Of a DNA stretch of 64,000 nucleotides, positions 10,834-56,121 are shown one piece after another. The DNA comes from Patescibacteria group bacterium UBA6017 (GTDB lineage: Bacteria; Patescibacteriota; Saccharimonadia; UBA4664). A program made the position numbers and the translations under genes. Where the stretch lies: the NCBI GenBank assembly GCA_002429485.1, contig DIZX01000011.1, forward strand, positions 55,258 through 119,257. The letters run 5' to 3'. Each line of letters starts with the position of its first letter. Position 1 is the stretch's first letter. The notes beneath the pieces were generated by a model, which saw only the letters and a list, made by a program, of their open reading frames with translations, ran no database searches and was not told where the DNA came from.

Positions 10834-10934
10834 GTAAGTAGCATAACATGACCCGATATATCGACGAACTTCTAGCGCCGCCAACTAGCGAATATTTATT
10901 TTTATCAGTTAAGGTACTGCCAGGCGTGAGGCGG

Positions 10935-13900: not shown

Positions 13901-16900
13901 CATTATTTGAGGAACCGATATTATTGGCCTGGAGAGCAAAAGTACCAAAGGCATTATTGTAGCTAGCAGTGGTATTGGCGGTGAGGCTATAAGCGCCAAG
14001 AGCGTTGTTGTGTTGACCAGTGGTGTTGGATGTCAGTGCAGACATACCTGTAGCCGTATTGTCGAAGCCGGTCGTGTTATTCAGCAGCGCGCCCCGGCCA
14101 ATGGCGGTGTTCTCATAGCCAGTCTGGTTAAATTGGAGTGCTCGGGATCCGAGAGCGGTATTGTAATTGCCGGTAGTGTTGGACTGCATACTGTAGCTGC
14201 CGATGGCAGTGTTCTCGAAACCAGTCGTGTTAGCCTGGAGCGTGATGTAGCCCAGGGCGGTATTGCGGTAGCCGGTGGCGTTAGCTTGCCCCGAGTTGAT
14301 GCCTATGAAGTTGTTGCTTGGGTCACTGCTAGCCCGGACTTCGATGTTAGCTACTCCACTGGCGTTCTTAACGGTCAAAGCCGAGTTGGTAATACCGGTA
14401 ATCTGTTTGATGGTGACCCCCGAAATAGTCCCCAGCCAGCTGCCCGTCGGGGTGAAGGACAGTTTGTTGGTGTTAACAGTGTTGACGACGTAGCTGTAGG
14501 TGCCATTACAGTTGTCTCCGGTGATGGCTACACCACCCAAGGTCTGGCCACCAATGGCGGCAGTAACTGATTGAGATGAGTTGCCACAGGCCGTCGGCGT
14601 ACTACTGATATTGAAGCTAACTTGGTATGTAGCCCCACTGGTGATGGCGGCCGTGGTGTTGGTGATGGTGGTTGTACCACTAGTGTGGGTAGCTTGAGTA
14701 GAGGTGGTCACATCCCACCCAGTGGTAGTTCCCCATTGGGTGGCGAAGTTGTTAACCCCCATGAGATCCGCACCTAGGGTGGCTGTGTCGGTACCGGCGC
14801 GTACGGTGAGGGTTTGGTTGGTGGTGTCGACGTTTACTACCGGAACGGCGGTGGCATTTTGAATCTGGAAGGATGTGGCGGAGTTTGAAGCTGCCTTCTG
14901 AGTATAATCACCGTTGAGCGAGATACCGGAGCCCTGAACCTTGAACAGGTTGTCAACTCCGCCGTTGCTGCTCGAGATACCAAAATAAGTGTTAGCGCTG
15001 ATGTCCAAAGTCGACATCACTACTTCGTTCACCCCCAGAGAAGTGACGTTCGTGAATGCCACGAAGGTTGGCGTAAACCACGCCTGCTCCGTAGGCTCAA
15101 TTGTGACATATGTGTTCGAGGCACCAGCACTCGTAGAAGATGCCCGAACATCAATATAAGTTAGATCAAGTACTGTATCGTGTACTACTCTCATCCGGTC
15201 ATAGTCAGAAGTACCATTCTGGTTCAACAGAGATACAGTAGCCGTCGACCCCCAGTCAGCCTGAACTAAGAAGGATCTTGAGTTTGGGGTCATCGTACCG
15301 CCAATAGTCGTCAAAGTAACCTTAGCGGCAAATCGGCCATTGTTGGTCGCTCTTGAAGCAATCCGGTACCAATTGCCGCTAGTATTAGTCTGTGCCACAA
15401 CTCCCGTACTTATCCCCTGTGTCAACAGAATGTCGCTGCTAGTCTGAGCTAGCGTACGATATTTCAGTACGCCGCTATCGTTCGTAACGAACCCGGTATA
15501 AGTAGCGTCATCGGCTGTTTGGGGTACAATCACGCTTCCCGCTACAGTATCGACCGATAAAATGGAGGTACCGGCCGCATTTTGGACCCGGAAAGCAGTG
15601 GTTGAGTCATTTCCAGTAGTAGGCTTCACAAGGGCCGTTCCGGCCACCAGCAGGTTAATGTTGCGGGTGGTACTCCAGTCATTGAGGTTATTGGTCCCGG
15701 TCACGCCAAGCCGCACAGTAGAGTCACCAGCATTTGAGTTAGACCCTAGCCCCCAGGAGTTCATGCTGTTCCATTGTCCTACAATGCTGGCGTTACCGGC
15801 GGCATTGCTACTAGCATCGTTCAGGAGTAAGTAAGCCGGTGTAGCAGTACCAGTGCTATTAATTCCAATAACTACCTTATTATTGGAAGTATCAACTGCG
15901 AGAACATTAGCAGCCGAGGCATTTTGGACTTGGAATGCGGTGACGGAATTGGTATTACTCTTAGCAATAATCGAAGCGCTGGCGCTATTGGTGCTTAAGT
16001 TTAAGTTGCCAGTCCCGGCGTTTACGTTGACGGCCGTTGCACCAGTGGTATTACCAAGAGTAATCGTGCCGACATTAGCCGTTCCGATACTTATTGCCCC
16101 GTTCGCCGTCGCGCCGGTACCGGCATCAATCACTACGTTACCGCCGGTGCGGGTACCACTCGCCCCGGTAGCGTTGCCGCCCTGTAGTGTCAATACACCA
16201 CCGACGGCAGTGGTAGTACCGCTTTCGTTACCAGCCCTAAGGGTCAGGGCTGCTCCGGTAGCTGCCGCCGAAGTATTATTCCCCGGCTGAAACACCAAGG
16301 CCGTCGGAGCCGTCCCGGCCAAGGTGGTAATGTCGGCCGTTTGGGCTCCCGCCAAGGTTAAGGCTCCCAGGTTGTCTATTTTGAACTTCGACACTCCGTT
16401 GGCCTGGAGGTCTAGGAAAGCCCCCGAGGCAAACGAGCCCGAACCGTTGGCTACGTTCACTAGCAAAGCCGTGCCGGTGTAGGCTGAGGTGGACTGGCTC
16501 ACACTCAGTAAGGTAGCGCTGGTGGCCCCGGTATTTGAGGTGGTGATGTTGCCCGCATTCTGGGTTTGCTGAATATCTACCGCCTGAGCCGCCGTGCCAC
16601 TCGTCCCCTTCACGGTCAGACCCACTACGCTGTTGACTGTCGGCGTAATGGTGTTTTGGGCAGTCGAGGTGGGGGCTTGGAGAATACACGTGATACAGGT
16701 GTTGGCCGACCCGGCGTTCACCGCGTACACTGCACTGCCTATCCGGCGCATCGGCAGCATTTCCCCGTCCGGCGTACAGCTCGAGAAGGGCGTGCAACTG
16801 GAAGTCGTGTTGGCGCCGCCCGCGATGTTCGTAGACAGCCACAGCACCGGCTGGTTGAGGTCAATCCCCACTAAAGTCGTGATTGAGCCCAAATTCACGG

Positions 16901-17279
16901 AGAAGTAACCGTTCTTCACTGTCACTCCGTTACTGGCATTATTTAACCATTCTTCAGTCCACTGCAAAGTACCAGCCGTGCTCTGACAATCTGGCAGGGT
17001 TGCACAGGCACTATCGGTGGCCACCAACCCATCACCATTCTTGTAGATCTTGAACTGCATATTGTAATTTCCATCAGCAACAACGGCCCCAGCCGCGTTC
17101 AGCAGCCGACCCTGGTAGTTCACTTTATTGTTGATGCCAGCGCTCGGGGCCACGGCCTGCGCCGGACTAGCCGGCACTATCCCACTCAAGCCAAATAGCC
17201 CGACCAGTGTCAGGAGCGGTGCTATACGTGAGATAAATGTTTGGACTCTTCGCCTGAAAATTAGGCTCGAAATGATCAC
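10935..17279 (-). CDS. giant secreted surface protein A (2114 aa) with YadA-head-like 14-residue repeats
   Basis: Signal peptide. Its N-terminal domain is shared with giant B (QGRL.NA.G..V.DGNYN.QFKIY...GTLQWTEEWL...NLGSIT). It has a long run of 14-aa N-T-A-x-G repeats (NTAIGSYSMQSNTTGNYNTALGSRAL...) and repeated NVLAVDTSNNKVVIGI-type segments. Confidence 0.75.
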   Translation of the reverse strand: MIISSLIFRRRVQTFISRIAPLLTLVGLFGLSGIVPASPAQAVAPSAGINNKVNYQGRLLNAAGAVVADGNYNMQFKIYKNGDGLVATDSACATLPDCQSTAGTLQWTEEWLNNASNGVTVKNGYFSVNLGSITTLVGIDLNQPVLWLSTNIAGGANTTSSCTPFSSCTPDGEMLPMRRIGSAVYAVNAGSANTCITCILQAPTSTAQNTITPTVNSVVGLTVKGTSGTAAQAVDIQQTQNAGNITTSNTGATSATLLSVSQSTSAYTGTALLVNVANGSGSFASGAFLDLQANGVSKFKIDNLGALTLAGAQTADITTLAGTAPTALVFQPGNNTSAAATGAALTLRAGNESGTTTAVGGVLTLQGGNATGASGTRTGGNVVIDAGTGATANGAISIGTANVGTITLGNTTGATAVNVNAGTGNLNLSTNSASASIIAKSNTNSVTAFQVQNASAANVLAVDTSNNKVVIGINSTGTATPAYLLLNDASSNAAGNASIVGQWNSMNSWGLGSNSNAGDSTVRLGVTGTNNLNDWSTTRNINLLVAGTALVKPTTGNDSTTAFRVQNAAGTSILSVDTVAGSVIVPQTADDATYTGFVTNDSGVLKYRTLAQTSSDILLTQGISTGVVAQTNTSGNWYRIASRATNNGRFAAKVTLTTIGGTMTPNSRSFLVQADWGSTATVSLLNQNGTSDYDRMRVVHDTVLDLTYIDVRASSTSAGASNTYVTIEPTEQAWFTPTFVAFTNVTSLGVNEVVMSTLDISANTYFGISSSNGGVDNLFKVQGSGISLNGDYTQKAASNSATSFQIQNATAVPVVNVDTTNQTLTVRAGTDTATLGADLMGVNNFATQWGTTTGWDVTTSTQATHTSGTTTITNTTAAITSGATYQVSFNISSTPTACGNSSQSVTAAIGGQTLGGVAITGDNCNGTYSYVVNTVNTNKLSFTPTGSWLGTISGVTIKQITGITNSALTVKNASGVANIEVRASSDPSNNFIGINSGQANATGYRNTALGYITLQANTTGFENTAIGSYSMQSNTTGNYNTALGSRALQFNQTGYENTAIGRGALLNNTTGFDNTATGMSALTSNTTGQHNNALGAYSLTANTTASYNNAFGTFALQANNIGSSNNAFGDASMILNTSGSYNTAVGDDTLRNNTSGSYNTALGRRAGFQDSGGQFATGAALQNATALGAYAQVQASNSIVLGSVDTATNVGIGTTIPLNTFSVSPLDYSTGTAYQSTTNITGVGTSWTSAMIGEQFIFATGQTATILTVPTSTTMTTATSQTVSSNPGIAYRIHRIGLQVTSAGLVGIGTSSPASLLYVTGGIPAVSAGAGTAATAALTVLGPNGGATTSTAGATAGAGSAISFTTGNGGAATGASGGETGGAAGTLLLQGGNGGAAINGTGGAGSNINLTAGNGGNGSTLGGAGGIITLAGGSVGTGGAATAGYVRVRNASNSTTAFAVQNASGANVLSVDTGGNAVHIGSSSGSTTPAFLYMDDWTTTATGNASITGQWPSNANWGIGPNSNVTDQVLRMGITSGDAVNTWGTAYNLNLVVAGTALVQPNAGLDSATAFAVKNGAGSSTALNVDTTTSNVSIGNALVVGGVSAERTFTKSFTNGVANQKFDLYFAPQFAGEIEVTLTSNYINQDAGGAVQKTFYLGLNAGGTIWHNDSRYSDASGATSANFAISDVTWDATNSRYRIQIVHRVSTGNDVFIDVKAINGYPGSITAISENMNTSAVYTTDTTSFVKPTVSYIDNVGIGVADAGTSRLNVQGGDTILGGNVQIGSATAADATQNNLQLDSSNVFADTGTCNATTNQGALYYNTNTNTPSVRVCEDGSWSDVVTTKDTGLIMFGVVPDSGTTPGDWVGVNGTLSASGPCRIYLGSVNTKIRWTGCTAYSNGRRVVVPAQAADQTVTLTAGHFTHVCLNTASTNQPQLLDGTSETNNLPTFSTTAPILCLADLKVNGSKITAIYDTRTFTTTTKELVNNITTAAALGMIAQQTATLGAVTRPALTLGLASMRGVFIVTAGGTTANTINAIIATAGPAFVKADAGSIQQNLESSATTNAGYSVTAAAIPAPANGYGSLGIALSAFSSTCTAATDDCRGSVATVLNIR
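13780..14330. repeat. roughly 42-bp periodic coding repeats (the YadA-head-like / Hep_Hag-like 14-aa repeat array) inside giant gene A
   Basis: About 13 iterations of an N-[TY]-A-[LIA]-G ... [AS]-N-T-[TS]-G unit in the translation. Coordinates are approximate. Confidence 0.5.
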
Positions 17280-17372
17280 TTCTCACATATAGCTTATGCT
17301 ACATATAATATCAAAATGAATAAGTATACACAAGCATTAACACCTGTCAAAACTTGTTATTTTGAGCTGACA

Positions 17373-18329
17373 TCACACGCCCTGGACGTTCTGCTTTCTA
17401 AGCTTGCTAATCTCCCGCCGTTCGCCGAGCCAGAAGAAAATTACCATCACCAATGCCAACAGATACAGCGGCCAAGCTGTGAGTAAAATCCCCGGCAATG
17501 CCCCCAGTCCTTCACCCTTGGTTCCCCCCGATGAATTCACCGGGCCGTTCACTACCGTAATCATTTGCAGGAAAGCTCCGTTGCCCTGCGCATCCGTGAC
17601 CCGCAAAATCACCCGATACGTCCCCGGCCGATCATACACATGCTTACTTGCCACTTGACCGTCTGCACCCTGGCTCACCAGCGTGGTATTACCGTCGCCC
17701 CAATCCCAACTCACCGCGTACGGCGGAACACCGCCCACGATCGTCGCCGAACGACCCGCCTCCTGGCCTGGATTCACCCCGAGCACAGTAGTACTGACCT
17801 CCAGAAACAACTGACGTCCAGTGGAGCCGCCGGGTAAATTCAAGCTTGGTGCGTCATAAAACACGTTGACTGCCGCCGAATCGGGCCCAAACTGCCCCAA
17901 AGCATCCGACACCTTAGCAACCAGCACATTTGAACCATCAAATAAATCAATTAGTAACGAAAATGTACCATCGGTATCGCACGGCGTCACGCCGCCAAAT
18001 ACGCCATTCTTCGTAATATTCACAAACGTATTTGCCGGACATGTCCCGGAAACGGTAATCGGAATGGTGCCCGTACGAGTGCCGGTACGCGGGCTCACAA
18101 TCACCGCCGCCGTAGTCGGTGCCGGACCCCTCACTGTCCCGCTCAATCCCACCGAACCCGACTGCGGATTCACCGCCGGAGTTGCTGCCTGAGTGGCCAG
18201 GCTCGAACCGAGCAATAAAATGCCTACCAAAATCAAGGCAAAAAACAACCCGGGATACGAGGTATGGCGATGGTGCCGTACCTTCCCGGAATGTTCATGG
18301 GGCACGAGCTGTAGTAAACCGGCTTTCAT
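17373..18329 (-). CDS. PKD-domain membrane protein with two transmembrane helices
   Basis: N-terminal and C-terminal hydrophobic helices. PKD signature WDWGDGNTT...HVYDRPGTYRVILRVTDAQGN. The tail WLGERRE is shared with the ORF at 47016..47996. Confidence 0.65.
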   Translation of the reverse strand: MKAGLLQLVPHEHSGKVRHHRHTSYPGLFFALILVGILLLGSSLATQAATPAVNPQSGSVGLSGTVRGPAPTTAAVIVSPRTGTRTGTIPITVSGTCPANTFVNITKNGVFGGVTPCDTDGTFSLLIDLFDGSNVLVAKVSDALGQFGPDSAAVNVFYDAPSLNLPGGSTGRQLFLEVSTTVLGVNPGQEAGRSATIVGGVPPYAVSWDWGDGNTTLVSQGADGQVASKHVYDRPGTYRVILRVTDAQGNGAFLQMITVVNGPVNSSGGTKGEGLGALPGILLTAWPLYLLALVMVIFFWLGERREISKLRKQNVQGV

Positions 18330-18352
18330 GCCTTTAGTTTAGCACAAACGTA

Positions 18353-19345
18353 TTACCGGTGTCGGCGAGCTTGCGCAATGATGTGATCGTTGTAGCGGCG
18401 CAAGGCCATCTTGAGTACGAAGAAGAGGACAATCAGGCCAATCAGTCCGAGCAGAATCAGCTTCCACGGAATTACCCAGAACCCGATTTTGCCCGTAAGC
18501 GTCTTGCCGCTCGAGTAGTTCAATACCAACGCCGCCGTATAGTGACCAAATAATTGCTTATTGCTCAGACTACTCTCAAACCGGCGCACACTGTCCGGTA
18601 GCACATTGCCACCCTTCTCATTCACCGCTACAGATCCAATTTTCTTACCAAACGTATCTTTAACTTCAATTGCCCCCGTCACCTTCTCGTGAACGCTACC
18701 CTCGTTGCGAACGCGCACCAGGAAGTCGACCGGGCCGTGTTCAAAAAAGCTTTGCTTACTAAACACTACTGGTGATACCTGCATACCAGAAGTAAATTCT
18801 GCCAAACTCACCTTTTCGGTGATAATACCGCTGACTTTGAGCAAGATCAACGCCCCGACACTAGCTGACAGAGCCACGCCTGCGCCCGCTAGGTTCGGAG
18901 GCACGGCCGTAAACCGCACAACCCCAAAGTGACCGCCCGGCTCTGCGTTAGCCGGCACGACGATCTTTATAGTGGTGGTCTTGAGGTCCCCAGGGGCCAA
19001 TTGTAGGTCAGGTACGGTCTGGATCCAATATTTCAATGAAAAGTGCGTTGAACCAGTTTCGTCGAGGAGTAATTTCGGTTGGCCGCTCTCGTCTGATCCG
19101 GCACCAAAATCATCCGCCTTCCCTTTGGCTATCAACTCCCCTTGAGTCACGTTGCGCACACGGATACTGGCCGTCACAGTCTGGCCTGGGTTAGCTGACA
19201 ATTCCATCACCGGCGGAGAAATCTCCAGACCCTGACCAGGCGAACCAGCATCAGCCGCATTAGCTGTAGCAGCCCCAAACAAAGGACCGGCCGCCAATAG
19301 GCAGGTCATCAATCCGAAAACAGCATTCTTGTACCACTTACTCAT
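18353..19345 (-). CDS. membrane-tethered protein with two Ig-like domains (Ig-TM1); candidate chaperone-like or DUF916-like component
   Basis: Signal peptide, about 260 aa of predicted beta-rich ectodomain, then a C-terminal transmembrane segment and basic tail (WVIPWKLILLGLIGLIVLFFVLKMALRRYNDH...). The motif GGHFGVVRFTAVPP followed by the alternating-hydrophobic VALSASVGALILLKV recalls the F1/G1 region of PapD-type chaperones. The architecture also matches WxL-locus DUF916/DUF3324 proteins. Confidence 0.6.
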   Translation of the reverse strand: MSKWYKNAVFGLMTCLLAAGPLFGAATANAADAGSPGQGLEISPPVMELSANPGQTVTASIRVRNVTQGELIAKGKADDFGAGSDESGQPKLLLDETGSTHFSLKYWIQTVPDLQLAPGDLKTTTIKIVVPANAEPGGHFGVVRFTAVPPNLAGAGVALSASVGALILLKVSGIITEKVSLAEFTSGMQVSPVVFSKQSFFEHGPVDFLVRVRNEGSVHEKVTGAIEVKDTFGKKIGSVAVNEKGGNVLPDSVRRFESSLSNKQLFGHYTAALVLNYSSGKTLTGKIGFWVIPWKLILLGLIGLIVLFFVLKMALRRYNDHIIAQARRHR

Positions 19346-19384
19346 TGCAATTAGTGTATAGCATAAGTTTAATAATACGAAAAG

Positions 19385-20416
19385 TTAGAAGCTTGCTGTA
19401 CAGATATAAGTCATCGTCGAAGTATAAACGCCTGCCGCTTGCGCGCCGCCGATATTCACGATGTAGCTCGATGTAAAAGTATTCGCATTTGTCGGTAAGC
19501 CAGCCTGAGCCACACTATCGCCGCTGCCAAAACGATACGAATTCGCCGTACCATATGTCCCGCTGAACGTTCCACTCCCAACACCTGTCGGGTCGGCCCC
19601 CACCGCCGGAGATGCATTAGAACGTAAGTTTAATCCAAACTGACTCGTACCTATCGCGCTGACCGTTTGCGCAGCTAAAGCCGGTATTGTATTCACCCCA
19701 GACGCCAAAGTGCTGCCGTTTATCGTCACCGTATAGCCGTTCGCGGCATTAGTCTGAGCCTGCATAACGCTCGTGCCGCTTCTCGTCAGTACCGGCGAGA
19801 AATCTCCAAAATCAATAGTATTGCCAGCTACCGTAGTACAATCAGGACCGATTGAGGTTCCAACGCAGAATACTAATATCTCAGGGGTCACCCCGGTAAG
19901 CTGTACTGGCTGCGCCGTACTCATAGCTACCGTTCCGGTATCCGTCACACCCGTCGCTCCATCACCGCCCGTGTAAGTCGAGATGCGCACGAAGTATGAA
20001 GTATTTGTCGCTGATGGATTCGTAATCGTGCCTAACGTATAGCTCAGCGCTGTCCCAGAGTTTAGATTAACTGCACCTCGCGTAATGTACGGTGCCCCAT
20101 TAGCCCCATTCACTATCGCGAATCCCACTGCTCCGCTTTGAGCCGTAAGTGTGGCACTCGTCGTTACTACACCGGCCGGCATCGCGCAGACGCCCGTAGG
20201 CGCCGAACATAACTCAAATTTAATCGAGCCGATATTGGCAGTCGTAGCAGTGGTCGCATTCACGGTATAGTTAGTTGTCGCGCCCTGAGCGCTCGAACCC
20301 ACCTGCACATTGCGCGGGGAGAGCCCGGCAGCTGATGTACTCAAAGGGGCTAATATCAGCGCCAGGACGGCTATCCGCCGTAGGCTGTGCGAGGAAGTTT
20401 GGATTAAATGCTTCAT
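19385..20416 (-). CDS. secreted tandem-domain SCPU/Csu-pilin-like protein (P1)
   Basis: Signal peptide. Two modules, each with a Cys pair (IKFELCSAPTGVCAMP; LVFCVGTSIGPDCTTVAGNTIDFGDFSPV) and a terminal strand motif (YFVRISTY; AQAAGVYTSTMTYICTASF). These resemble the CsuA/B features TGCTVGG..NKFGTLNFG and AQGDYKDTLLVTVNF. Confidence 0.6.
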   Translation of the reverse strand: MKHLIQTSSHSLRRIAVLALILAPLSTSAAGLSPRNVQVGSSAQGATTNYTVNATTATTANIGSIKFELCSAPTGVCAMPAGVVTTSATLTAQSGAVGFAIVNGANGAPYITRGAVNLNSGTALSYTLGTITNPSATNTSYFVRISTYTGGDGATGVTDTGTVAMSTAQPVQLTGVTPEILVFCVGTSIGPDCTTVAGNTIDFGDFSPVLTRSGTSVMQAQTNAANGYTVTINGSTLASGVNTIPALAAQTVSAIGTSQFGLNLRSNASPAVGADPTGVGSGTFSGTYGTANSYRFGSGDSVAQAGLPTNANTFTSSYIVNIGGAQAAGVYTSTMTYICTASF

Positions 20417-20443
20417 GCTATGTTTGTTTCCGTTATGCTTGTT

Positions 20444-21532
20444 TTAGAATGTCGCGGTACAGATATAAGTTAATGTTGCCGTATACACCCCTGCGGCCTG
20501 ATCGCCGCCAACGTTTACAATGTAGGAATTTGTGAATAAGTTAGTATTCGTGACCCCGCTCACGCTCGCCACTGTATCCCCCGTAAAGTGTCTAAAGGCA
20601 TTAGCCGTATTGTAACCACCCACACCGACAGAAGTTCCGGGGCCCGATACATTGTTACCGACAGTTGGCGTGGCATTAGACTTCACGTTCGTCCCGAACT
20701 GGCTGGTTCCGGTAGTTGAAGTACAGCTCGGCGAACAGCCAGCCGAATTCAAAGACTGCGTCCCCATAGCCGTAATTGTATTCGCCCCACTCGATAGGGT
20801 TGTACCCGTGAGTGTAATCGCATATCCAAAGCCAGCATTCGTACTAGCACTCATCAGACTAGTCCCGGTATTGGTCGCGACCGGGGAAAACACCCCAAGA
20901 GATACTGCTGATCCAGTCATATTACTGCAATCCGTCCCGCTAGTACCCACACAAAAGACTAAACTCTCTGGCATTGTACCGCTCACTACGATCTGGTTTG
21001 CCGTCGACACAGCAACTGAACCAAAATCCACCTCAACTGTCCCTGATGAATCCGAATAAGTAGTGATACGCCCATAGAACTGCTTATTCGAGGCTGACGG
21101 ATTATGCACGTTCTGGAGCGTTAATGTCACCGTGGTACTAGTGTTTATGTTTTGGGGTGTGCCATTAGTTATCCTGAATGCATTAGTGGTTGGCGCTGGC
21201 GGTGTGCCGGTGCCGGCGGTAAAACCAGATATACCGCTCTGGGCAGAAATAGTAGCAGTATTTGAAGTAAAGCTGACTCCATTGGAATCGCCCGAGTTAA
21301 CGCAACCTATCGCTTCAAGCGGTGAGTCACACATCTCGAACTTAATTGCGCCTATATTCCCCGTCGTGCCGGGCTTAAAGCCAAACGAGTACGTTGTCAC
21401 TGCGCCCGCAGCTGAGCTACCGAGAGTAAGTACCCGGCTCGTTGGCGTCACAGCCTGAGCGGAAAAAGGTGAAGCCAAAGCAAGCAATAGTGCTATCGAA
21501 CTCGTCCGAGCCAGGAGCGTTTTAATTTTCAT
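20444..21532 (-). CDS. secreted tandem-domain SCPU/Csu-pilin-like protein (P2)
   Basis: Paralog of P1. KFEMCDSPLEAIGC and LVFCVGTSGTDCSNMTGSAVSLGVFSPV; the C-terminus is DQAAGVYTATLTYICTATF. Confidence 0.6.
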   Translation of the reverse strand: MKIKTLLARTSSIALLLALASPFSAQAVTPTSRVLTLGSSAAGAVTTYSFGFKPGTTGNIGAIKFEMCDSPLEAIGCVNSGDSNGVSFTSNTATISAQSGISGFTAGTGTPPAPTTNAFRITNGTPQNINTSTTVTLTLQNVHNPSASNKQFYGRITTYSDSSGTVEVDFGSVAVSTANQIVVSGTMPESLVFCVGTSGTDCSNMTGSAVSLGVFSPVATNTGTSLMSASTNAGFGYAITLTGTTLSSGANTITAMGTQSLNSAGCSPSCTSTTGTSQFGTNVKSNATPTVGNNVSGPGTSVGVGGYNTANAFRHFTGDTVASVSGVTNTNLFTNSYIVNVGGDQAAGVYTATLTYICTATF

Positions 21533-21608
21533 TTCTATTTGTACCCATATTCATAATGCTTATGTAAACATTACTACTCCGTGATCGATTGAGTCAAGGA
21601 CAGTTGAG

Positions 21609-22595
21609 CTAGCGAGCCCGAGACTTCGCAATAATGTATCGGTTGTATCTACGGACACCCAGAGTAACAAGGTACACCGTAACGATTATGCCAACCAAGA
21701 CAAGTAACAATAATTTCCATGGTATTACCCAGAACTCGATTGTGTTATCCACAATCTTGCCCGTGGCATAACTCAAAGCCAGGTGAGCCGAATATCTCCC
21801 AAACAACTGCTTCTGATTGAGCGTTTGCGTGAATCTGCGGATACTATCCGGCAAGACGCTCCCTCCTTGCTCGTCGACCTTAACGGTCGCAACTTTGTGC
21901 CCCATCCAGTCCGTAACATCGATGCTCCCACCTGGACGCTCGTGAACGCTCCCCTCGTTCTTCAGCCGGACCAAAAAGCCAACAGGTCCATATTCGAAAA
22001 ACGATCCTGTTACATCTTTTTTGGTTTTAGTATTCGTTTGATACGCGCTGAACTCAGCCAAGCTCATTTTATCGGTAATGGCCCCCGACACCTTCAGTAA
22101 TATCAATGACCCCACACTGGCCGAAAGCGCAACACCTGTACCGTCAACACCAGGCGCAACTCCAGTGAATCGAACAACCCCGAAATGACCACCGGGCTCA
22201 GCATTTTTAGGTATGGTGATGGTGACAGTCGTCGTCTTCAACTCTCTCGGAGCCAACTTCAGATCAGGAACCCCCGAAATCCAGTATTTCAACGAATACC
22301 GTGTTGCTCCGGTTTCATCGAGCAATATATGGGGGGCACCGTCTTCGCTGGTTCCCGCTCCAAAATCATCCGCCTTGCCCTTAGTTATCAGCGTGGCCGC
22401 AGTAACATTTCTAACCCGGATATTCGCAGTAATTGTCTGCCCGGGATCTGCGCTAAGCTCTATCACCGGCGGAGATATCTCGAGCCCCTGGCCGCCGGTA
22501 GCTTGAGCGTTTACGGGCAATGCTACTGCCAAAGGCGATAGACATAATGCAGCTCCCAGGACAAAAGCGCTCCAACCCAGTAATCTTTTATTCAT
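21609..22595 (-). CDS. membrane-tethered protein with two Ig-like domains (Ig-TM2), paralog of 18353..19345
   Basis: Signal peptide (start MNKRLLGW at 22595). Conserved GGHFGVVRFTGVAP...VALSASVGSLILLKVSG and a C-terminal transmembrane segment with basic tail. Confidence 0.6.
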   Translation of the reverse strand: MNKRLLGWSAFVLGAALCLSPLAVALPVNAQATGGQGLEISPPVIELSADPGQTITANIRVRNVTAATLITKGKADDFGAGTSEDGAPHILLDETGATRYSLKYWISGVPDLKLAPRELKTTTVTITIPKNAEPGGHFGVVRFTGVAPGVDGTGVALSASVGSLILLKVSGAITDKMSLAEFSAYQTNTKTKKDVTGSFFEYGPVGFLVRLKNEGSVHERPGGSIDVTDWMGHKVATVKVDEQGGSVLPDSIRRFTQTLNQKQLFGRYSAHLALSYATGKIVDNTIEFWVIPWKLLLLVLVGIIVTVYLVTLGVRRYNRYIIAKSRAR

Positions 22596-22793
22596 GCAAA
22601 TACCGTACAGCATAAGCCAGATCAATACAACCAAGCCCAAGCGTCTTTCTTCAAGTTAAATACCAATCCACGATTCCGGCGCAAATGTATATCTGCATCA
22701 CAATGTAGCGCCAGCTATCGTAGTTCCGTGTATGTTTGCATGCGTACGCCACAACGTAGGGCTTATCCATTGTTGGCCTTCAGTTAGAGATAA

Positions 22794-22824
22794 GCAAAAT
22801 AGCTCCTCGCCAGGAAGCTATTTG
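22794..22824 (-). terminator. possible attenuator or terminator hairpin between P3 and Ig-TM2
   Basis: Inverted repeat aaatagct(N11)agctattt, about 60 nt downstream of the P3 stop on the transcribed strand. Confidence 0.3.
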
Positions 22825-22884
22825 CCCAAACTCATGACTGCCGAACTGTATCTACCTAGTCCTCAGTTCCTAGTGATAAGTTGC

Positions 22885-24057
22885 CTAAAAGTTGCCTGTG
22901 CAGATAAATGTCTGCGTCGCAGTGTAGGCACCAGCCTTCGTAGTAGCAAGCACGTTGGCTACGTACGCCATCGTGTAGAGCGTGTCCGCGGTTGGCTGTG
23001 TTGCAGAAGCAATCTTCACTCCCCCTGCGGTACTGTAAGAGAACGTGTTGGCCGTAGCGTAGGTACCAAAGGCCGTGCCGGATGCGCTACCGGTTGCACC
23101 CACACCTACTGCAGGCGTCGTGTTGGTCATCAGGTTGAAGCCGAACTGCTCGGCCGTGGCACTGTTGTTCACCGCACCACCCACCGGGAAAGCCGTAATT
23201 GTATCAGCCGTTGTATCCGTAAATGATGAGCCGTTATAGGTAATATTATAACCGTTCAGACCATTTGTCGCCGCGGTCATCTTTGCGATACCGGTCGAAG
23301 CTGCACCATTGGCCATCGGGTTTGGTGACAGCGTCACTGTTGAACCGGTAAAGGTTCCACAAGTCTCGGGTGTACCCGAAGTTGCACCGGAAGTCCCGAC
23401 ACAGAAGACGAGGTTTTCTTGAACGTTCGCGGTTACCGATATCTGCTGAGTTGTGGCCATGGCGATACCACCGAAGTCACGCACGGTCGTAGGAGCTACA
23501 CCCGTACCTTCGTTGTAGGTCGTAATCTTCATGTAATATTGAACATTAGTCGTCGTCGGATTTTTGGCCGCGTTGATCGTACAAGTCCAAGTATTGCCCG
23601 CCGTTGCGGACGCAGATGTGCGAGTCATATACAGAGTATTTGCGGTCGAAGCTTGACCACTCACACCCAAGACAAAGCTTGCTGCGTTCGTACCAGTACA
23701 ACCGGTGGTGGTTGCTGGGCCCGATGTGAAGCTTTCACCAGTGGAGTTACCGGAGTTTACGCAAGACACTGCCGCAAGCGGAGAATCACAGATTTCAAAT
23801 TTAATCGTACCAACGTTCGCCGTCTGGCCAATATTGAATACTGAAGTTAACGTTACGCCCGTTGCCGCCGGCAGCGAGCTGCTCGGAGTTACACTACGAG
23901 TATCAAGCACACCGGCGGTAGAAGCCAACGCCGGGATCGGAGCCAGGCTCACGAGAATAAGCGAGACCGCACCGATCCAAGAAGCAGCTCGCTCGAGGAA
24001 ACTCAGCCTTGTCTTCGCATTTGAAGTTAATTTCATTATTTTTTTAGCACCTTTCAT
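22885..24057 (-). CDS. secreted tandem-domain SCPU/Csu-pilin-like protein (P3)
   Basis: IKFEICDSPLAAVSC, QYYMKITTYNEG, LVFCVGTSGATSGTPETC; the C-terminus is KAGAYTATQTFICTGNF. Confidence 0.55.
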   Translation of the reverse strand: MKGAKKIMKLTSNAKTRLSFLERAASWIGAVSLILVSLAPIPALASTAGVLDTRSVTPSSSLPAATGVTLTSVFNIGQTANVGTIKFEICDSPLAAVSCVNSGNSTGESFTSGPATTTGCTGTNAASFVLGVSGQASTANTLYMTRTSASATAGNTWTCTINAAKNPTTTNVQYYMKITTYNEGTGVAPTTVRDFGGIAMATTQQISVTANVQENLVFCVGTSGATSGTPETCGTFTGSTVTLSPNPMANGAASTGIAKMTAATNGLNGYNITYNGSSFTDTTADTITAFPVGGAVNNSATAEQFGFNLMTNTTPAVGVGATGSASGTAFGTYATANTFSYSTAGGVKIASATQPTADTLYTMAYVANVLATTKAGAYTATQTFICTGNF

Positions 24058-24118
24058 GGCAACATAATATTGTCAGAATCGTAGCATAAGCTTTATTTTG
24101 ATGTCAACACCCTCTAAT

Positions 24119-24928
24119 CTAGTATGTCCCCGTAGCCACCAGCGTCATACCGCCCCCGTAAGTGCCTCCGGGCGAGACACTACTCATATTTGCCATAAAA
24201 CTAATCGTGTAGTCTGTTTCCCCGGAACTACTAGGAGCTGAGGCAATAGTATCCCCCGAAAAATACCGGTACGCATCAGCCGTTCGATAAGGCAAAGGAA
24301 TAACCACTGAAGGGTTAGATAAGCTAAAGGCTGAACTGGGAATAGGCACAGGGTCGGCTCCAACCGCAGCCGGAGAAGCATTCAATCTTAGGTTGATCCC
24401 AAATTGTTCCACTCCGTTGTTCGATGCGCAGGTCGGCGAGCAGCCGGTACTGTTCGCACTTTGTGAACCCATCCCTGCTAAAGCATGCCCGCCGTTACTT
24501 GGCGGAGAGCCAACTATTTGCACCACATAACCAAAAGAAGTGTAATCCTTAACACTGAAGGTTGCCGTAGCTGTCTTGGCTGTCACTAATGAGAGTGCGC
24601 CAAACGCTACTAATGACGTATTCACTATCATCGTCAGGCTCGGTTGTGCCGTGGTATCGAACCCGGATTTAGTCTGGAAGCTTGTCGACGCGCCATTCCC
24701 CACCGCGTTCTCGCCGAGACTCGATCCCCCGTCGTCAGCACTTGGATTGAAAGTAAAGTTGCCTCCGGTGGAGGTTGAATTGAACTGCCCGTTGCCGCCC
24801 ACTTCTCCCTCGACTATTCGATAGCTCGTCGAAGTCGACGACGGATCTCCGATCGCGCCACTAGCCGTGCCGGAGATACCCAGTACCAGGGCCATCGAAA
24901 TTACAAGCTGTCTGTTCCACCTTCTCAT
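24119..24928 (-). CDS. secreted single-domain SCPU/Csu-pilin-like protein (P4)
   Basis: Signal peptide. STGCSPTCASNNGVEQFGINLRLNASPAAVGADP parallels P1 and P2. The C-terminus GGMTLVATGTY ends in an aromatic residue. Confidence 0.5.
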   Translation of the reverse strand: MRRWNRQLVISMALVLGISGTASGAIGDPSSTSTSYRIVEGEVGGNGQFNSTSTGGNFTFNPSADDGGSSLGENAVGNGASTSFQTKSGFDTTAQPSLTMIVNTSLVAFGALSLVTAKTATATFSVKDYTSFGYVVQIVGSPPSNGGHALAGMGSQSANSTGCSPTCASNNGVEQFGINLRLNASPAAVGADPVPIPSSAFSLSNPSVVIPLPYRTADAYRYFSGDTIASAPSSSGETDYTISFMANMSSVSPGGTYGGGMTLVATGTY

Positions 24929-24992
24929 TACTGTTTATCTTGCCGTATTTTGACAAAAATCGCAATCCGCTTGCGCTAGGATGGAATATATG

Positions 24993-25010
24993 TAGCACAA
25001 GCGTTATAAT
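24993..25010 (+). promoter_or_regulatory. island motif TAGCACAAGCG abutting a consensus -10 TATAAT
   Basis: tagcacaagcgTTATAAT with the -10 at 25005-25010. It lies upstream of the gene at 25040, in the region that diverges from P4. Confidence 0.4.
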
Positions 25011-25039: not shown

Positions 25040-25963
25040 ATGCCTCCGGGCACTCCCCCGCCAATTCTTCAACTCAATAAACCCAAGCCCAACCTCGGTG
25101 GGAGCTGGAAGCGCCTCAACGGCCGGGCCAGCCTGGTTGCCAGTATCACTTCCCTCTTTGTATTTTTGATGGTCGTCGGCGGCGTGGGCGGCTACTACTT
25201 TGCCCAAAGCCGCAAACCTGCGCCTACTGCCACCAAAACCACCATTTCGACCCTAACCCCCGAAGAACTCGCTAAACTCACCGAGGTCGGCTCCAATCTC
25301 GGTAACTCCGGCCAAACGCTAAATATCGGCGCTAACGCCTTATTCCGAGGCACCGCCAACGTCACCGGTGATCTCACGATCGGCGGCAAGCTCAACGCCA
25401 ACGGCCCTGTGACCCTCAGCCAGCTCAACATCACCGGCACCACCGCCGCCACCGGCCTCAACGTGGGCTCCAACCTCAACGTCACCGGCAACACCACTCT
25501 GCAGCAATCATTGAGCGTGGGCGGGCTCACCACACTGGGCGGCGGGCTCAACGTCGGCGGCGCGGCCAGCTTCAATTCGATCAACGCCACTACCTTGTCG
25601 GTCAGCAACATCAATATCTCCGGCCCCCTGCGCATCAGTCACCTCTCCACCCAAGGGCCCACGCCCACTTTCGTCACCAGCACCAACCTTGGCGGCGGCG
25701 GCACGGGCAGCATTAGCGGCAATGACACCGCCGGCACCGTCAACTTCAATACCGGAGGTGGCACGGCCGCGGGCGTGCTTGGCACCATCACGTTCCGGGC
25801 TGGCTACTCCGGTACCCCGCATGTATTGCTCTCGCCCATCTCCGGTGCCGCCGCCAGCACCCCCGTGTACGTCACCCGCACCACTGGCGGCTTCCAGGTG
25901 CGCACCGACTCCGCTCCCCCCGCCGGCGCCATCCTAAGCTTCGACTACTTCGTCACTCAGTAG
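25040..25963 (+). CDS. type-II membrane protein with beta-helical repeats and a conserved C-terminal domain
   Basis: Start taken at ATG 25040 (the ORF track uses GTG 25013). N-terminal transmembrane segment LVASITSLFVFLMVVGGVGGYYF. Repeats LNVTGNTTLQ / LNVGGAASF. The C-terminus ...FDYFVTQ is paralogous to the ORF at 48655..49779 (...FTYWVVQ). Confidence 0.55.
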   Translation: MPPGTPPPILQLNKPKPNLGGSWKRLNGRASLVASITSLFVFLMVVGGVGGYYFAQSRKPAPTATKTTISTLTPEELAKLTEVGSNLGNSGQTLNIGANALFRGTANVTGDLTIGGKLNANGPVTLSQLNITGTTAATGLNVGSNLNVTGNTTLQQSLSVGGLTTLGGGLNVGGAASFNSINATTLSVSNINISGPLRISHLSTQGPTPTFVTSTNLGGGGTGSISGNDTAGTVNFNTGGGTAAGVLGTITFRAGYSGTPHVLLSPISGAAASTPVYVTRTTGGFQVRTDSAPPAGAILSFDYFVTQ

Positions 25964-26510
25964 CCTGGCCTCCTGGCAACTCCGAGTTCTTGCGAGAATT
26001 GCAAAATATGGCGTAGTTATGTGGCCCGATATCAGTCAAGCGCATTACTGCGGACGGATCACAAAAACGATTCGGCTCGCCTAGATACGCCCGATAACTC
26101 GACCATTCATATTCATCGATCCCCCGAATCCCAACGGGATTCAAATGAATGTACCGGCTTAAGTTCATCAAATCAGCATTGTCACGCACATACCTATCTC
26201 TATATCTGCCCTGAAATATATGGCCGACCTGGCCATAATGCTTGTTGTAATACTTCACATATCCGAGCGCCAGCGACGTCATACATTTCTGTATCGATCC
26301 CCTGCCATCCTGTCTCAGCAGTAAATGGAAATGATTCGGCATCAGGCAGTATGCCGCCACAGTCACCGAATGCTCAGCAGCCGCATCCCGCAACATCCAC
26401 AGAAACTTCTCATAATCCCGTGCATCATGATAAACCGCTTCCCTATGGTTCCCACGATTATATATATGATAAAAATGAAAATCTTCGAAATTTCGGCGTG
26501 GCGTAGGCAT
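25953..26510 (-). mobile_element. IS200/IS605-like Y1 (HUH) transposase, or REP-associated tyrosine transposase-like gene
   Basis: HUH motif (YCLMPNHFHLLL) and Tyr motif (GHIFQGRYRDRYV...YIHLNPV). Start at M17, ATG 26510. The 3' end overlaps the 25040..25963 gene by 11 nt. Confidence 0.6.
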
Positions 26511-26599
26511 ACTCGTATCTCCAGCGCCTACAATACCGAACAAATACCATAAATACAACTTCTGTCAAAAACTCTGAGTTGCAGGGCGGCAGCTACCCC

Positions 26600-29500
26600 C
26601 TACTGCGCCGTATCCAGCAAACAGCCGTCCGTTACCACGCGGTTACAGCCCGTATTCGTAAACGACGCCCCGTGCCGCAACCGCCGCGTCGGGTTCGGAT
26701 GGTAGTAAATGTCGACGTCTTGAGCCACACTGACCGTATCCGGGAAGCCTCCGGTATTCGAATCGTCAATGATCAAGAAGAGATAGTAGTTGAACGCAAT
26801 ACCCACGTCCGTACCCGTGCCATCCAGTGCCTTCAAGAAGTAAAACTTGGTCGCGTAGGCCGGGCTAATGAATTGCGGCACACCCCAGGTAGTGGTTCCC
26901 ACAGCGGCCGTTCGCATGGTAATAACGTACTGACCGCTGCCATTCACCTGCACCAGCGACGGCGCAGTGTTGACCTCAGTGTTAAACATCTTGGAGTAGT
27001 GCCCGATGCGTGCTTGAGCCTTCTGCCCGGCATACTCCGCCCCATTGTTTGCTGTCGTACAAGCCGAACCGCTTAGCGTACAGCCTCCAACCTCATAAAA
27101 GAACCCGTCCGAGAAGACACCCCCGCCATGAGCGTGGTTTGAACCCGCAATCATGCCCGAGTTCGACGCCCGGTAGAGATTTCCAATCGTGCCGTTAGAA
27201 TTGATCGCGGCATAAAATACATCCAATCCCGAGCTCTCCGAACCAAAGAAGTACATGTACCCATTGGCCGCTGCGGCCTGCCTGAACCTCCCTTTCTGAT
27301 CTTGCTCATTGGTATATTTCCACGTACCGAGCGACCCATCGGTATTGATAGGCGCAAATTGCACATCACTCAAATTATTCGTGCCATCATACCCGCCTAT
27401 CACGTACAACTTTGAATTGTAGGCCAACACGCTCTGATCTTGCCTAGCGGTGGAAAAAGTACTGCCATCCGTAGTCCAACTCAGCAGCAATCCGTTTTCA
27501 CCAATCTCACTAAACATCACACTATTCTTCAGAGTCGCGCCGTTGATCCCCCCTGCCGCATATACCCGCCCGTTCATCAATGTCGCACCAAACCCATGTC
27601 GAGCCTCGGGCATCGACGTTTCGGTGCGCCAGGTACCGACATCGCCGGTAGCGCTCAGTGGCGCGGAAATGACGTCCGCGGTATCAGCAGCGGTAGACGA
27701 CGAACCCCCAATAAGGAATATCCTGCCTACGTAGGTTATCGCCGCCCCGGATATGCGCGCCTGACCCGACGACAACTGAGTGTCGCTACCGCTCGAAAAT
27801 GAACCAAGCGACCCGCTCGCGCTAATTGCCGCGTGCTCAACCTTCGTCGACCAGACCGTGCAAACGCCGGCGCTATAGGTAGTGCAGCCACCAACCACAT
27901 ACAGATTTCCGTTATATGCCACCGTCTGTGCATCGGCCCGGGCCGTTAGGGTACACGCGCCCGTACACCCTGAGGTGCTGGTCCAGGGGTTCGTATTGGC
28001 AGCCGTGGTTCCAAACAATCCGCTTCCGCCGTTCCGGACCACGAAGTACTCCGATGTCGCCAGGTAGCTACCCGTAGCACACGGCGGCACGCCGGTTCCG
28101 CTACACCCTCCGACCGTATATAGCCGGCCGTCATATGCAGCTACACCTGCTCCCCACCGCGCCGCGCTCAAGGTTTTTGAGCAAGTCGTCCAAACCCCCA
28201 CCGCTCCCGTCGATCCATCCAAAGCCGCACATGAAATCACGTTCGAAGGCGCATTGCCGGCGTTGTCCGTCATACCCCCGATGGAATAAATGACGTTGTT
28301 ATGAATCACTACCCCAATGAAAGTATGCGGCCCCGACGGCAAAGTGTTCGTCTCTGTCGTAACGCTCCCGACCGCTCCAGTCGTGCTGGTTAGCGGCGCG
28401 CGGTAGACATCAGTATAAGAGGTTGTCCCATTTCTTCCGCCAGCAATATACAGATATCCCGCATATGCCGCCGCTCCCAACCCCCGCTTGCCGGTGCTGC
28501 CAAAACTGTAAGTTCCACTGCCGCACCACAGCGTACTGCTAACGCCACAACTATTTGGATCAGCCAAACTTCCTCCCGAGATCTTGGTATACTGCACGTC
28601 GTTGTAATAGTTGGTGCCGTCATAGCCGCCCATCAGATAGATATAATTGCCCCACACGGCGCTAGCCAGATACGCCCGGCCGCTGATGAAGGCATGCGAG
28701 GCCGTATTGTCAGCCGACCAGCTCAGGTTACCATTGCTGGCCGTTTGGGTCGCCACCAACAAGGTATTGGCATAATTGTCCGCCGGGGCAGTCGTCTTCT
28801 GCAGCCCGCCAATGTAGTAAAGTTTGCCTCCATAACCCACCATCGTTCCGAATGTCCGCCCGGCGTTCATTCCCGTAGATGCCGGTAAAGTCCCCATGCC
28901 GGTAGTGGTCCAAGCACCCAGAGACCCGTCATCATTTATTTTGGCAGCGTCCACCGTAGCCACGTAGGTCCCACAGTTGGTACCATTGCAACCTCCGGCG
29001 GCGTATAGGTAACCGTTGTAGGCGGTGGTTGCAACTCCGGCCCTGGCCGCTGTCACGCTGCCGCCGTTGTTGGCCGTGGGGCTGGTAGTGTCGCCGGGAG
29101 TGGTATTGATAATTGCGTACTGCGAATCCCCGAGGGCAGTCGTACAGTTGTTGGCGTTGGTCGGCTCTGCGGTACACCCGGCTATCGAATATATAACACC
29201 GTTATATGACGCCACACCATTGAATAATCGCGCTGTCGTGAAGCTCGTCGACGTATCCCATGCACCAATCGTCCCATCGGCATTAATGACCGCGTAGTAG
29301 GTGCTGTTTAGTAAGCCCGAACAGGCAGGCGCCGTGGTACACCCACCCACGATATAGAGGTGGCCCTGTTCGGCTACTACTCCCCCATTGCGCCATCCGG
29401 CAGCCAACACCGCCGTAATAGCCGTTGTAGTGCCCCAAGTACCTAGCGTGTAATCCGGCGCGATAGACACATACTGCACATCGGTCAGCGCGCTCGTGCC

Positions 29501-31201: not shown

Positions 31202-31259
31202 TCACAACTCCTTTACCATAAGCTTAATGGTTTAGGCTCTCAGAATCAAACTGATTGCG

Positions 31260-39726: not shown

Positions 39727-39790
39727 ACAACCACACAGTTACACCCTAAGCATAGCCGTTTTCAGATATAAACACAAGAGTTTTGAGGCT

Positions 39791-42698: not shown

Positions 42699-42707
42699 TG
42701 AATTTGC

Positions 42708-43808: not shown

Positions 43809-43916
43809 CTAAACTCCATCACACTAACTAACTGGTATCAGTGTATCGGAAGCATAAGAAGCATGCAAGGAGATTTATTGTCGCTGTCTTCAGCTTATTC
43901 GATCGTCGGCTCGCTC

Positions 43917-45077: not shown

Positions 45078-45084
45078 TTGGTTT

Positions 45085-45145
45085 GACTTTTTCTTGCGTT
45101 TTTAATGCGTTTTTTCTTGGACTTTTATTTGGGTTTTTTCGTTGT
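45085..45145. promoter_or_regulatory. helically phased T-tracts (predicted curved DNA) upstream of P6
   Basis: Five T4-6 tracts centred at about 45091, 45101, 45113, 45126 and 45137, spaced 10-13 bp apart and including gcgttttt repeats. They lie immediately 5' of the P6 start on its coding strand as A-tracts. Confidence 0.35.
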
Positions 45146-45232
45146 TGAAAATACTTACGCTAACTTTACCCCGAGCCCTCGGGTCGTGTCAACTATATTT
45201 ACAACACTTTTATCCACAAGCACTTTAGCCAA

Positions 45233-47996: not shown

Positions 47997-48029
47997 TATC
48001 TGGATATTAGCATATCCAGGCTCACGAAA

Positions 48030-48584: not shown

Positions 48585-48654
48585 CTCAACCTCACTATGG
48601 TTGATTAGAGCATACCAGTTTGTAAGCCAGAAGCACAAGCAGTATTCTAGGTGT

Positions 48655-55292: not shown

Positions 55293-55520
55293 GGTTGTCT
55301 CCTAAAAATAAAAACCATCCGGACTTATGCAGGGACTCGCAAAGTCGCGAGCGGTACCACCCTGCTTTCCAGATGGACTCTTCATTATCAACTATTGTCG
55401 TGAGTTGCCAACGTCTCGGTCTAATAAGCTCAATATGAGCCTTTCTTCGAGCAGCTTCGCGGTTGATAGCCGCTTATCCATTTACAGGAATGCCTACCAA
55501 TTTGTGAACCTACTATACCA
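55293..55520 (-). promoter_or_regulatory. T-box riboswitch leader of ileS
   Basis: On the coding strand, AGCAGGGTGGTACCGCTCGC (plus-strand coordinates 55347-55366) matches the T-box consensus AGGGTGGNACCGCG. It is followed by the terminator helix CCATCTGGAAAGCAGGG...CCCTGCATAAGTCCGGATGG and TTTTTATTTTT before the ribosome binding site. The 5' extent is approximate. Confidence 0.6.
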
Positions 55521-56073: not shown

Positions 56074-56121
56074 AAGTGCCTCAAGTATAGCATTAGCGTT
56101 ATATCAGCAAAGTAGTTTTTG

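Follow-up and report, generated by a model that had tools for sequence, protein, structure and literature searches.

A candidate class-specific extended −10 box at Pam pilus promoters in Saccharimonadia

The window analyzed here is a 64,000-nucleotide stretch of contig DIZX01000011.1 from the Saccharimonadia genome Patescibacteria group bacterium UBA6017 (GCA_002429485.1), and its subject is an 8-bp sequence, here called the box (consensus GCTTATGC), found upstream of pilus genes. What had been annotated as one "surface island" consists of two paralogous gene clusters. Both sets of flanking genes are housekeeping genes: prfA, prmC, htrA, a LytR-family gene, lepB, and parAB in one; rplU, a HAD hydrolase gene, ftsW, ileS, yggT, ftsZ, ftsA, map, and adk in the other. 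By NCBIfam models, cluster A is a Pam pilus cluster. The Pam pilin C-terminal domain (NF058581; cutoff, 55 bits) is encoded by the pilin genes at 20444-21532 (133 bits) and 22885-24057 (84.7 bits) and by the PamT-like gene at 24119-24928 (130 bits); the latter scores just below the cutoff of the PamT model (213 versus 240), and the PamR-like gene at 17373-18329 just below that of the PamR model (298.8 versus 300). The cluster is syntenic in relatives, in the order divergent gene, PamT, pilins, PamC/D-like, PamR-like, and then parAB or a giant-protein gene. A PDB sequence search with the pilin gave no match, and a profile search for distant pilin homologs outside Saccharimonadia found only close relatives among the matches listed. 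An identical pilin-like protein is also encoded on contig DHWZ01000022.1 of GCA_002413465.1.

A 2026 preprint on "Candidatus Mycosynbacter amalyticus" (Troman et al., 10.64898/2026.03.03.709456) described the Pam system; in that organism PamA and PamB rank 2nd and 9th in protein abundance. The preprint calls the pam cluster an operon, and the words "promoter" and "transcription" are absent from its text. The Pam pilus is a newly described, very abundant host-contact filament, and its genes have been depicted as one operon. Transcription signals are almost entirely uncharacterized in the candidate phyla radiation (CPR)/Patescibacteria, whose members are mostly uncultured and whose regulation has been inferred solely from the scarcity of regulators; our literature search on promoter motifs, start sites, σ factors, and leaderless mRNAs of Saccharibacteria/Saccharimonadia found nothing specific.

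Three minus-strand sites in cluster A illustrate the architecture of the box. Upstream of the pilin gene 22885-24057 (start ATG at 24057), predicted −35 (TTGACA, 24102-24107) and −10 (TACGAT, 24078-24083) hexamers are separated by an 18-bp spacer, and the canonical box GCTTATGC occupies 24084-24091 (22.4 bits in the weight matrix described below). The PamC/D-like (Ig-TM1) gene 18353-19345 has canonical box ACTTATGC at 19361-19368 (18.0 bits), followed by the hexamer TATACA (19355-19360) 9 nt before the ATG at 19345, a near-leaderless arrangement. The PamR-like gene has box variant GTTTGTGC at 18342-18349 (16.4 bits) and the hexamer TAAACT (18336-18341) 6 nt before its ATG at 18329, which is leaderless geometry. 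At such sites the 8-mer spans positions −20 to −13, with a TAnnnT −10 hexamer immediately after it. In matrix hits the base frequencies are G-20 75%, C-19 82%, T-18 97%, T-17 70%, A-16 79%, T-15 85%, G-14 90%, and C-13 48% (G-13, 28%). The TG at −15/−14, one base before the hexamer, is that of a canonical extended −10 element, one of the two characters proposed in the initial annotation. The purine at −16 (97% of hits) together with T-17 further gives the form of the TRTG element, defined as T-17, a purine at −16, and TG (PMC12641261).

Pilin promoters also have a TTGAC −35 element, whose distance from the hexamer is 18 bp (21 promoters), 17 bp (7 promoters), or 19 bp (2 promoters); the register between 8-mer and hexamer stays constant while the distance to TTGAC varies. 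That the motif abuts a −10-like hexamer, as was also noticed initially, is confirmed by a regular-expression count: when GCT[TCA][AG]TG[CGT] occurs upstream of genes it is directly followed by TAnnnT in 37 of 77 cases, compared with 6 of 314 in coding sequence. We rejected the alternative that TATGCT is itself the −10 at canonical sites: TTGAC would then sit 13 bp away and the leaderless geometry would be broken, so the hexamer after the box is taken as the −10.

We compared the window with 31 loci from other species, designated by L numbers and retrieved by a search seeded with three pilin paralogs (an alignment of five was too divergent as a seed); most of their records name Candidatus Saccharimonadia, Saccharimonadales, or Saccharibacteria. 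Exact CTTATGCT is present five times in the window versus 1.39 expected (1 of 100 shuffles reached five), and all five copies are intergenic or in a start-codon-proximal stretch, outside gene bodies. Bare TATGCT is not enriched (25 copies versus 27 expected). An unbiased k-mer count identified CTTATGC as the most upstream-enriched 7-mer of the window; in the 31 other loci, GCTTATG (41 versus 6.9 expected), TATGCTA, and CTTATGC rank among the top upstream 7-mers, beside ATGAAAA and TATAATA. A weight matrix trained solely on the other species finds nine matches of at least 14 bits in the window versus 0.38 expected, with a maximum of three in 60 simulations.

The box is specific to a class of genes. 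The 6-mer CTTATG is found 50 times upstream of island-type genes (5.8 expected) and 14 times upstream of other genes (7.0 expected), while TATACT and TATAAT are enriched upstream of both. Matrix matches of at least 14 bits number 1.3 per kb upstream of island genes, 0.18 upstream of other genes, and 0.018 in coding sequence. When only genes preceded by a gap of 40 nt or more are counted, a match is present at 56 of 121 island genes versus 8 of 116 others (Fisher p = 2.5e-12), which upholds the initially noted association with island genes. The specificity resides in the 5′ half of the box: TG alone precedes TAnnnT at 74 sites of island genes and 73 of others, but GCT at −20 to −18 together with TG does so at 43 versus 3, with a co-occurrence odds ratio of 22 at island genes and about 1.9 elsewhere. 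Thus the TG half is generic, and GCT with TG is specific to the class.

These counts bear on whether the box is simply the full consensus extended −10 of the housekeeping σA, seen at the strongest promoters and devoid of regulatory specificity. The canonical TTGAC and TAnnnT elements would suit that explanation, as would the match to TRTG, a known Firmicutes-type element (PMC12641261), the abundance of pilins in the relative studied by Troman et al., and the frequency of TGn at other promoters of these loci. Against it, other promoters show no partial preference for the bases at −20 to −18. Non-island leaderless promoters (n = 27) favor G-14 (74%) and G-13 (59%) but show no preference for GCT (G-20 19%, C-19 19%, T-18 26%), nor do 75 TGnTAnnnT sites (G-20 28%, C-19 15%, T-18 35%); the promoters of rplU, parA, yqeY, and the ATP-synthase operon lack GCT. 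In these loci only the TG, and not the 8-mer, is a general feature of housekeeping promoters. The −35 (TTGAC) and the hexamer (TAnnnT) equal those of generic promoters, and the class differs only at −20 to −18 and at −13, where it favors C (48%) and generic leaderless promoters favor G. tRNA genes were considered as markers of strong housekeeping promoters, but the window has none and the 31 loci only four. We consider the σA-consensus explanation improbable.

Conservation across relatives bears on a different alternative, namely that the similarity between sites is a functionless relic of tandem duplication, or chance. The pilin genes are indeed paralogous, the window holds two paralogous clusters, and some of the sites initially listed are weak look-alikes. 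Yet the box precedes nonhomologous families (pilins, PamR, PamC/D, a kelch-repeat giant gene, and an 87-amino-acid [aa] gene), and it is invariant between species whose proteins are 35 to 70% identical and whose flanking DNA is scrambled; chance is also at odds with the nine matrix matches in the window, given above. The box is found at 40 of 81 pilin genes, in 27 of 32 loci, and at 10 of 30 PamR, 9 of 32 PamC/D-like, and 5 of 27 PamT genes, against 10 of 263 unrelated genes. In 16 orthologous or paralogous pilin promoters, C-19, T-18, A-16, G-14, T-12, A-11, and T-7 are invariant and T-15 is present in at least 90%. PamC/D-like promoters of eight species share an invariant CTTATGCTAT and AATG start, and the boxes of PamR orthologs read GCTTGTGC, GCTTATGG, or GCTCATGC. 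A relic or a coincidence is therefore very hard to credit, and we give it almost no weight. Also rejected was a DNA-uptake sequence or repetitive extragenic palindromic (REP)-like repeat: copies are too few and are locked to promoters.

The best-scoring site of the window lies outside the island, after ftsZ: GCTAATGC followed by TATACT (56084-56097, minus strand; box 56090-56097; 23.0 bits), 10 nt before the ATG at 56073 of a thioredoxin-like, 87-aa gene (55810-56073, minus strand), with yggT (55556-55813, minus strand) next. This contradicts the earlier impression that the motif is absent before housekeeping genes. The post-ftsZ box is conserved in L072, L044, L055, L035, L038/L039, and L051, and an L051 paralog of the 87-aa gene (15163-15423) also has it. 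For a housekeeping control we collected ftsZ neighborhoods from metagenomes and kept 23 loci of window-like GC content (189 kb, 172 genes); of their 16 matches, more than half fall at the conserved site or next to it, in the stretch that immediately follows ftsZ. Left out of this control were L056-L068 and L070 (22 to 37% GC), which gave false "intergenic" matches inside ftsZ; they have long stretches free of open reading frames (ORFs) under genetic code 11 and probably belong to different CPR lineages or are translated with an alternative code. The conserved post-ftsZ site shows that the box is not exclusive to the pilus cluster but marks a small, discrete promoter class. Elsewhere in this flank, the ileS leader (55328-55476, minus strand) gives a weak, subthreshold T-box match (23.8 bits versus a gathering threshold of 93; E = 0.0018); the Rfam scan of the window returned nothing at the gathering threshold.

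The position of start codons lends independent support to the hexamer as the −10. Transcription starts are centered 7 bp downstream of −10 elements (PMC12641261), so an ATG 6 or 7 nt past the hexamer has the geometry of a leaderless mRNA. The first ATG lies at that distance in 20 of 74 box promoters, where about 2 would be expected (about 1 per offset), and at 8 to 9 nt in 7 more. A second group has predicted leaders of 34 to 47 nt; about half of the box promoters have predicted leaders of 35 to 50 nt. TAnnnT followed by 6 to 7 nt and ATG is common in many loci (for example, L030 16451 [ftsA], L004 2703-3404, and window 10833, 18329, and 48655), and promoters of the generic leaderless type carry GG at −14/−13. 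Leaderless mRNAs may thus be widespread in Saccharimonadia, to judge from this spacing.

The initial annotation had presented ten sites in the window as one motif. All the strings it quoted are present, two of them 6 to 7 nt from where they were placed: TAGCTTATGCTA is at 17290-17301, not 17296-17307, and the motif before Ig-TM1 is at 19359-19368, not 19352-19362. The motif itself is real, but the sites fall into five groups, with orientation and register having been conflated, and three sites were missed (18342-18349, 31216-31223, and 56090-56097). Canonical and co-oriented with a gene are 19361-19368 and 24084-24091, described above, and 24995-25002. The last, GCTTGTGC on the minus strand followed by TACATA (24989-24994; 20.0 bits), is oriented toward the PamT-like gene 24119-24928. 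On the plus strand the same box reads GCACAAGC, 2 nt before the predicted −10 TATAAT (25005-25010) of the divergent gene, whose real start is ATG 25040; this configuration, GCACAAGC-GT-TATAAT, is inverted. Two further listed sites are inverted. On the plus strand at 48633-48648 (box part, 48633-48640), GCACAAGC-AG-TATTCT precedes ATG 48655 by 6 nt; by its geometry 48655 is the leaderless start of the plus-strand paralog ending at 49779. On the minus strand at 21550-21565 (box part, 21558-21565), ACATAAGC-AT-TATGAA, with a weak hexamer, precedes the pilin gene 20444-21532.

At two minus-strand sites exact CTTATGCT has no −10 abutting it. At 22609-22616, before the PamC/D-like gene 21609-22595, the next six bases are TGTACG, not a −10; either the box is degenerate or TATGCT itself is the −10. 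At 43851-43858, before the pilin-like gene 42708-43808 of the second cluster, TACACT follows 6 nt on; here too the box may be degenerate, or TATGCT may act as the −10. Two other sites have only a TATGCT in a different register; they are look-alikes and were rejected as boxes. One, at 10840-10848 on the minus strand (TGT, TATGCT at 10840-10845, 6 nt, ATG 10833), scores below 9 bits in the matrix and resembles the ordinary TGn-extended −10 of a leaderless gene. The other, TATGCT at 39749-39754 (minus strand), is the probable −10 of the giant gene 31837-39726 and is kept in L008. Among the missed sites, 31210-31223 on the minus strand (GCTTATGG, box 31216-31223, then the weak hexamer TAAAGG; 15.5 bits) precedes a gene for a 1,533-aa protein (26600-31201) and is kept in L020.

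The remaining site, assigned initially to the other giant gene (10935-17279), lies on the opposite strand: GCTTATGC (17292-17299), followed by TACATA and an overlapping TATAAT, spans 17292-17309 on the plus strand (21.5 bits) and is antisense to its neighbors. A better-fitting candidate on the minus strand is TTGACA-16-TATACT at 17323-17350 (11/12 matches), which contains a one-base-shorter box, GCTTGTG (17329-17335); judged on sequence fit, this is the likelier promoter of the giant gene. A 56-codon ORF (17316-17486, plus strand) follows the plus-strand box and overlaps the 3′ end of the PamR-like gene in antisense orientation. This ORF is unlikely to be a real gene, but the site could drive an antisense transcript. 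In the window, 10935-17279 is a single 2,114-codon ORF, whereas in L001 (GCA_002413465.1) the giant gene is split into several shorter calls, a difference caused by assembly or a frameshift. Giant-gene upstream regions also share a TGTGTGAGA-like element near the start codon (window 17281-17290 and 39730-39745; L008, L017, L019, and L023).

Beside the pam cluster lies a gene resembling an IS200/Y1 transposase (25953-26558, minus strand). Its counterpart in L007 (4057-4683) is 53% identical and has the same position beside the pam cluster in a different species, a pattern more in keeping with a resident or domesticated gene than with a recent insertion.

The second, pam-like cluster (40674-49779) is divergent and comprises two chaperone-like genes, two pilin-like genes, PamT-like and PamR-like genes, and the plus-strand paralog. 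Its PamR-like gene has TATGC, then TAATAT, 7 nt, and ATG, a leaderless arrangement.

The main competitor to a promoter element is an operator: the 8-mer might be bound, in the spacer or −10-proximal region, by a dedicated repressor or activator of the pilus genes, with a generic σA promoter overlapping it. The specificity of the box for a gene class, rather than for promoters in general, would fit an operator, as would its near-palindromic form: GCTTATGC and its reverse complement GCATAAGC agree at 6 of 8 positions. In close relatives a gene for a dCache-domain protein adjoins the pam cluster (L004 2703-5004, L007 1942-3997, and L005 3986-5623), paired in L004 and L007 with a response regulator in which the receiver domain alone is recognizable; neither gene is in the window. 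In L004 the pair flanks the cluster, and it is a possible source of an operator-binding regulator, with related genes in L005 and L007.

Several further observations weigh against a core-promoter role for the box, and some of them would be better explained by an operator. Box and −10 occur in both orientations, the inverted form (GCAYAAGC-NN-TATAAT) offset by 2 bp: it is found upstream of the divergent gene family of 25013/48496 in 12 loci and hardly elsewhere, and an inverted 8-mer 2 bp from TATAAT fits a DNA-binding protein better than σ contacts. PamT-class intergenic regions retain the 8-mer, usually without TAnnnT after it. Upstream of a giant-protein gene in L032 (14738-14816), a 19-bp unit, ATATGGCTTGTGTTTTCAG, is repeated 4.2 times, so that four tandem copies of the 8-mer variant GCTTGTGT are present, one per unit, an arrangement that resembles an operator array more than it does promoters. 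In the second cluster of the window, internal gaps are mostly absent and the 8-mer is largely missing. The sample consists of loci centered on pam clusters rather than whole genomes, and orthologous promoters of related species cannot be counted as independent. The loci on which the weight matrix was tested had also served to seed and refine it, and the matrix drifted on iteration and is partly circular; the k-mer and regular-expression tests are free of that circularity, and we therefore place weight mainly on those counts. Finally, every promoter assigned here in the window organism is predicted from its DNA.

Against an operator stands, above all, the −10 register, which does not shift by a single nucleotide in dozens of promoters from nonhomologous genes, while the −35 distance varies. 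The conserved positions lack the dyad symmetry of a dimeric operator: three of four pairs are symmetric, but the best-conserved pair, T-18/T-15, breaks the dyad. The box is present as one 8-bp copy and lacks a second half-site, and it holds the canonical TG of σ recognition. No gene for a DNA-binding protein was found in the window or among recurrent small neighbors, and the response regulator, besides having no recognizable DNA-binding domain, is absent from most loci. To our knowledge, no known Gram-positive operator consensus resembles GCTTATGC. A MerR-type spacer operator, which calls for a long palindrome within an over-long spacer of 19 to 20 bp, was rejected, as spacers are 17 to 19 bp, mostly 18, and there is no long palindrome. 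We regard an operator as unlikely, although it has a better claim than the σA consensus.

The fixed register, the canonical TG, the asymmetric letters, and the independence from −35 distance argue that the holoenzyme reads the box as a component of the core promoter. Our favored explanation, which we hold to be probable, is that it is a promoter-class element, a class-specific composite extended −10. It would consist of eight bases, G(-20) C T T A T G C(-13), fused in fixed register to the −10 of a σ70-type promoter (TTGAC, 17 to 19 bp, TAnnnT). Its 3′ half (T-17, R-16, T-15, G-14) would be an ordinary extended −10, the "TRTG" or −16 region, and its 5′ half (GCT, −20 to −18) an extension nearly always tied to TG that defines a discrete promoter class. 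RNA polymerase holoenzyme would read the box on double-stranded DNA; region-3.0-type contacts could reach the TG, and extra contacts to −18 to −20 might be made by σA, by a second σ70-family σ, or by a σ-bound factor. The class would drive the Pam pilus cluster via several internal promoters, those of the pilins foremost and also those of PamR-, PamC/D-, and PamT-like genes, along with a few further members, chiefly the thioredoxin-like gene plus yggT after ftsZ. Many class promoters would start transcription at or beside the ATG, giving leaderless mRNAs, and others would give leaders of 35 to 50 nt. The sequences show the architecture, the register, the conservation, and the class specificity; from these we infer the start sites, a reader protein, and an effect on expression, namely, high and coordinated synthesis of pilus subunits. 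The sites are also evidence that the pam "operon" may be driven by several internal, often leaderless, promoters.

A narrower proposal is that the 8-mer belongs to a dedicated reader, a second σ70-family σ or a CPR-specific σ-bound protein, that switches on a Pam regulon together with the thioredoxin-like/YggT module near ftsZ. No σ gene lies in the window or the fetched loci, and Pfam scans of window genes and recurrent small neighboring ORFs revealed no σ or helix-turn-helix gene; the scans for a linked regulator yielded just ParB, the receiver-only response regulator (in relatives), and a cohesin-domain protein. We put this proposal forward tentatively, as a possibility that falls short of even chances. 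If true, it would define the first regulon and cis-regulatory code in Saccharimonadia, and the "pam operon" would become a group of genes with individual promoters, tuned in stoichiometry and in part leaderless; should the box prove to be just a strong σA variant, it would be a useful annotation but an unsurprising one. The box provides a sequence handle with which to predict pilus-coexpressed genes in any Saccharimonadia genome, predicts multiple internal promoters and leaderless mRNAs, may supply strong native promoters for emerging Saccharibacteria genetics, and poses a defined question as to the reader of −20 to −18. The underlying principle, an extended −10, is familiar; the box is set apart by a conserved three-base 5′ extension and by its confinement to a gene class.

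In its gene content, the cluster resembles the pam operon of "Ca. Mycosynbacter amalyticus": both have Pam pilins, PamT-like and PamR-like proteins, and membrane-anchored immunoglobulin (Ig)-like chaperone candidates, and ATP-synthase genes neighbor the cluster in several relatives. Unlike the single operon of that report (10.64898/2026.03.03.709456), most genes here have their own conserved predicted promoter, and the window adds a second, divergent pam-like cluster and giant-protein genes.

As for the box, the closest known kind of element is the TGn/TRTG extended −10 of σ70-family promoters in Firmicutes and Mollicutes, whose defining sequence features the predicted promoters carry: TG at −15/−14, T-17, a purine at −16, canonical hexamers, and a register with the −10 that is fixed regardless of the −35 distance. 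It differs in that G-20, C-19, and T-18 are conserved as well as the TG, and in that the full 8-mer is restricted to a gene class, while generic promoters of the same genomes have only TG or GG. Leaderless promoters of Actinobacteria and Deinococcus, with the −10 about 7 nt before the start, offer a parallel: at PamR-like and PamC/D-like genes, at some pilin genes, and at many others in these loci, the ATG follows the hexamer by 6 to 7 nt. Unlike the box, that geometry is a property of many Saccharimonadia genes.

Promoters of the Escherichia coli stationary-phase σS (RpoS) are reportedly discriminated through C-13 and a TATACT-like −10. The box class is likewise set apart by bases just upstream of a σ70-like −10, with C at −13 in about half of its members, where generic leaderless promoters prefer G, and with frequent TATACT hexamers. 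In contrast to σS promoters, its discriminating positions reach −20, and the organisms are unrelated to Proteobacteria.

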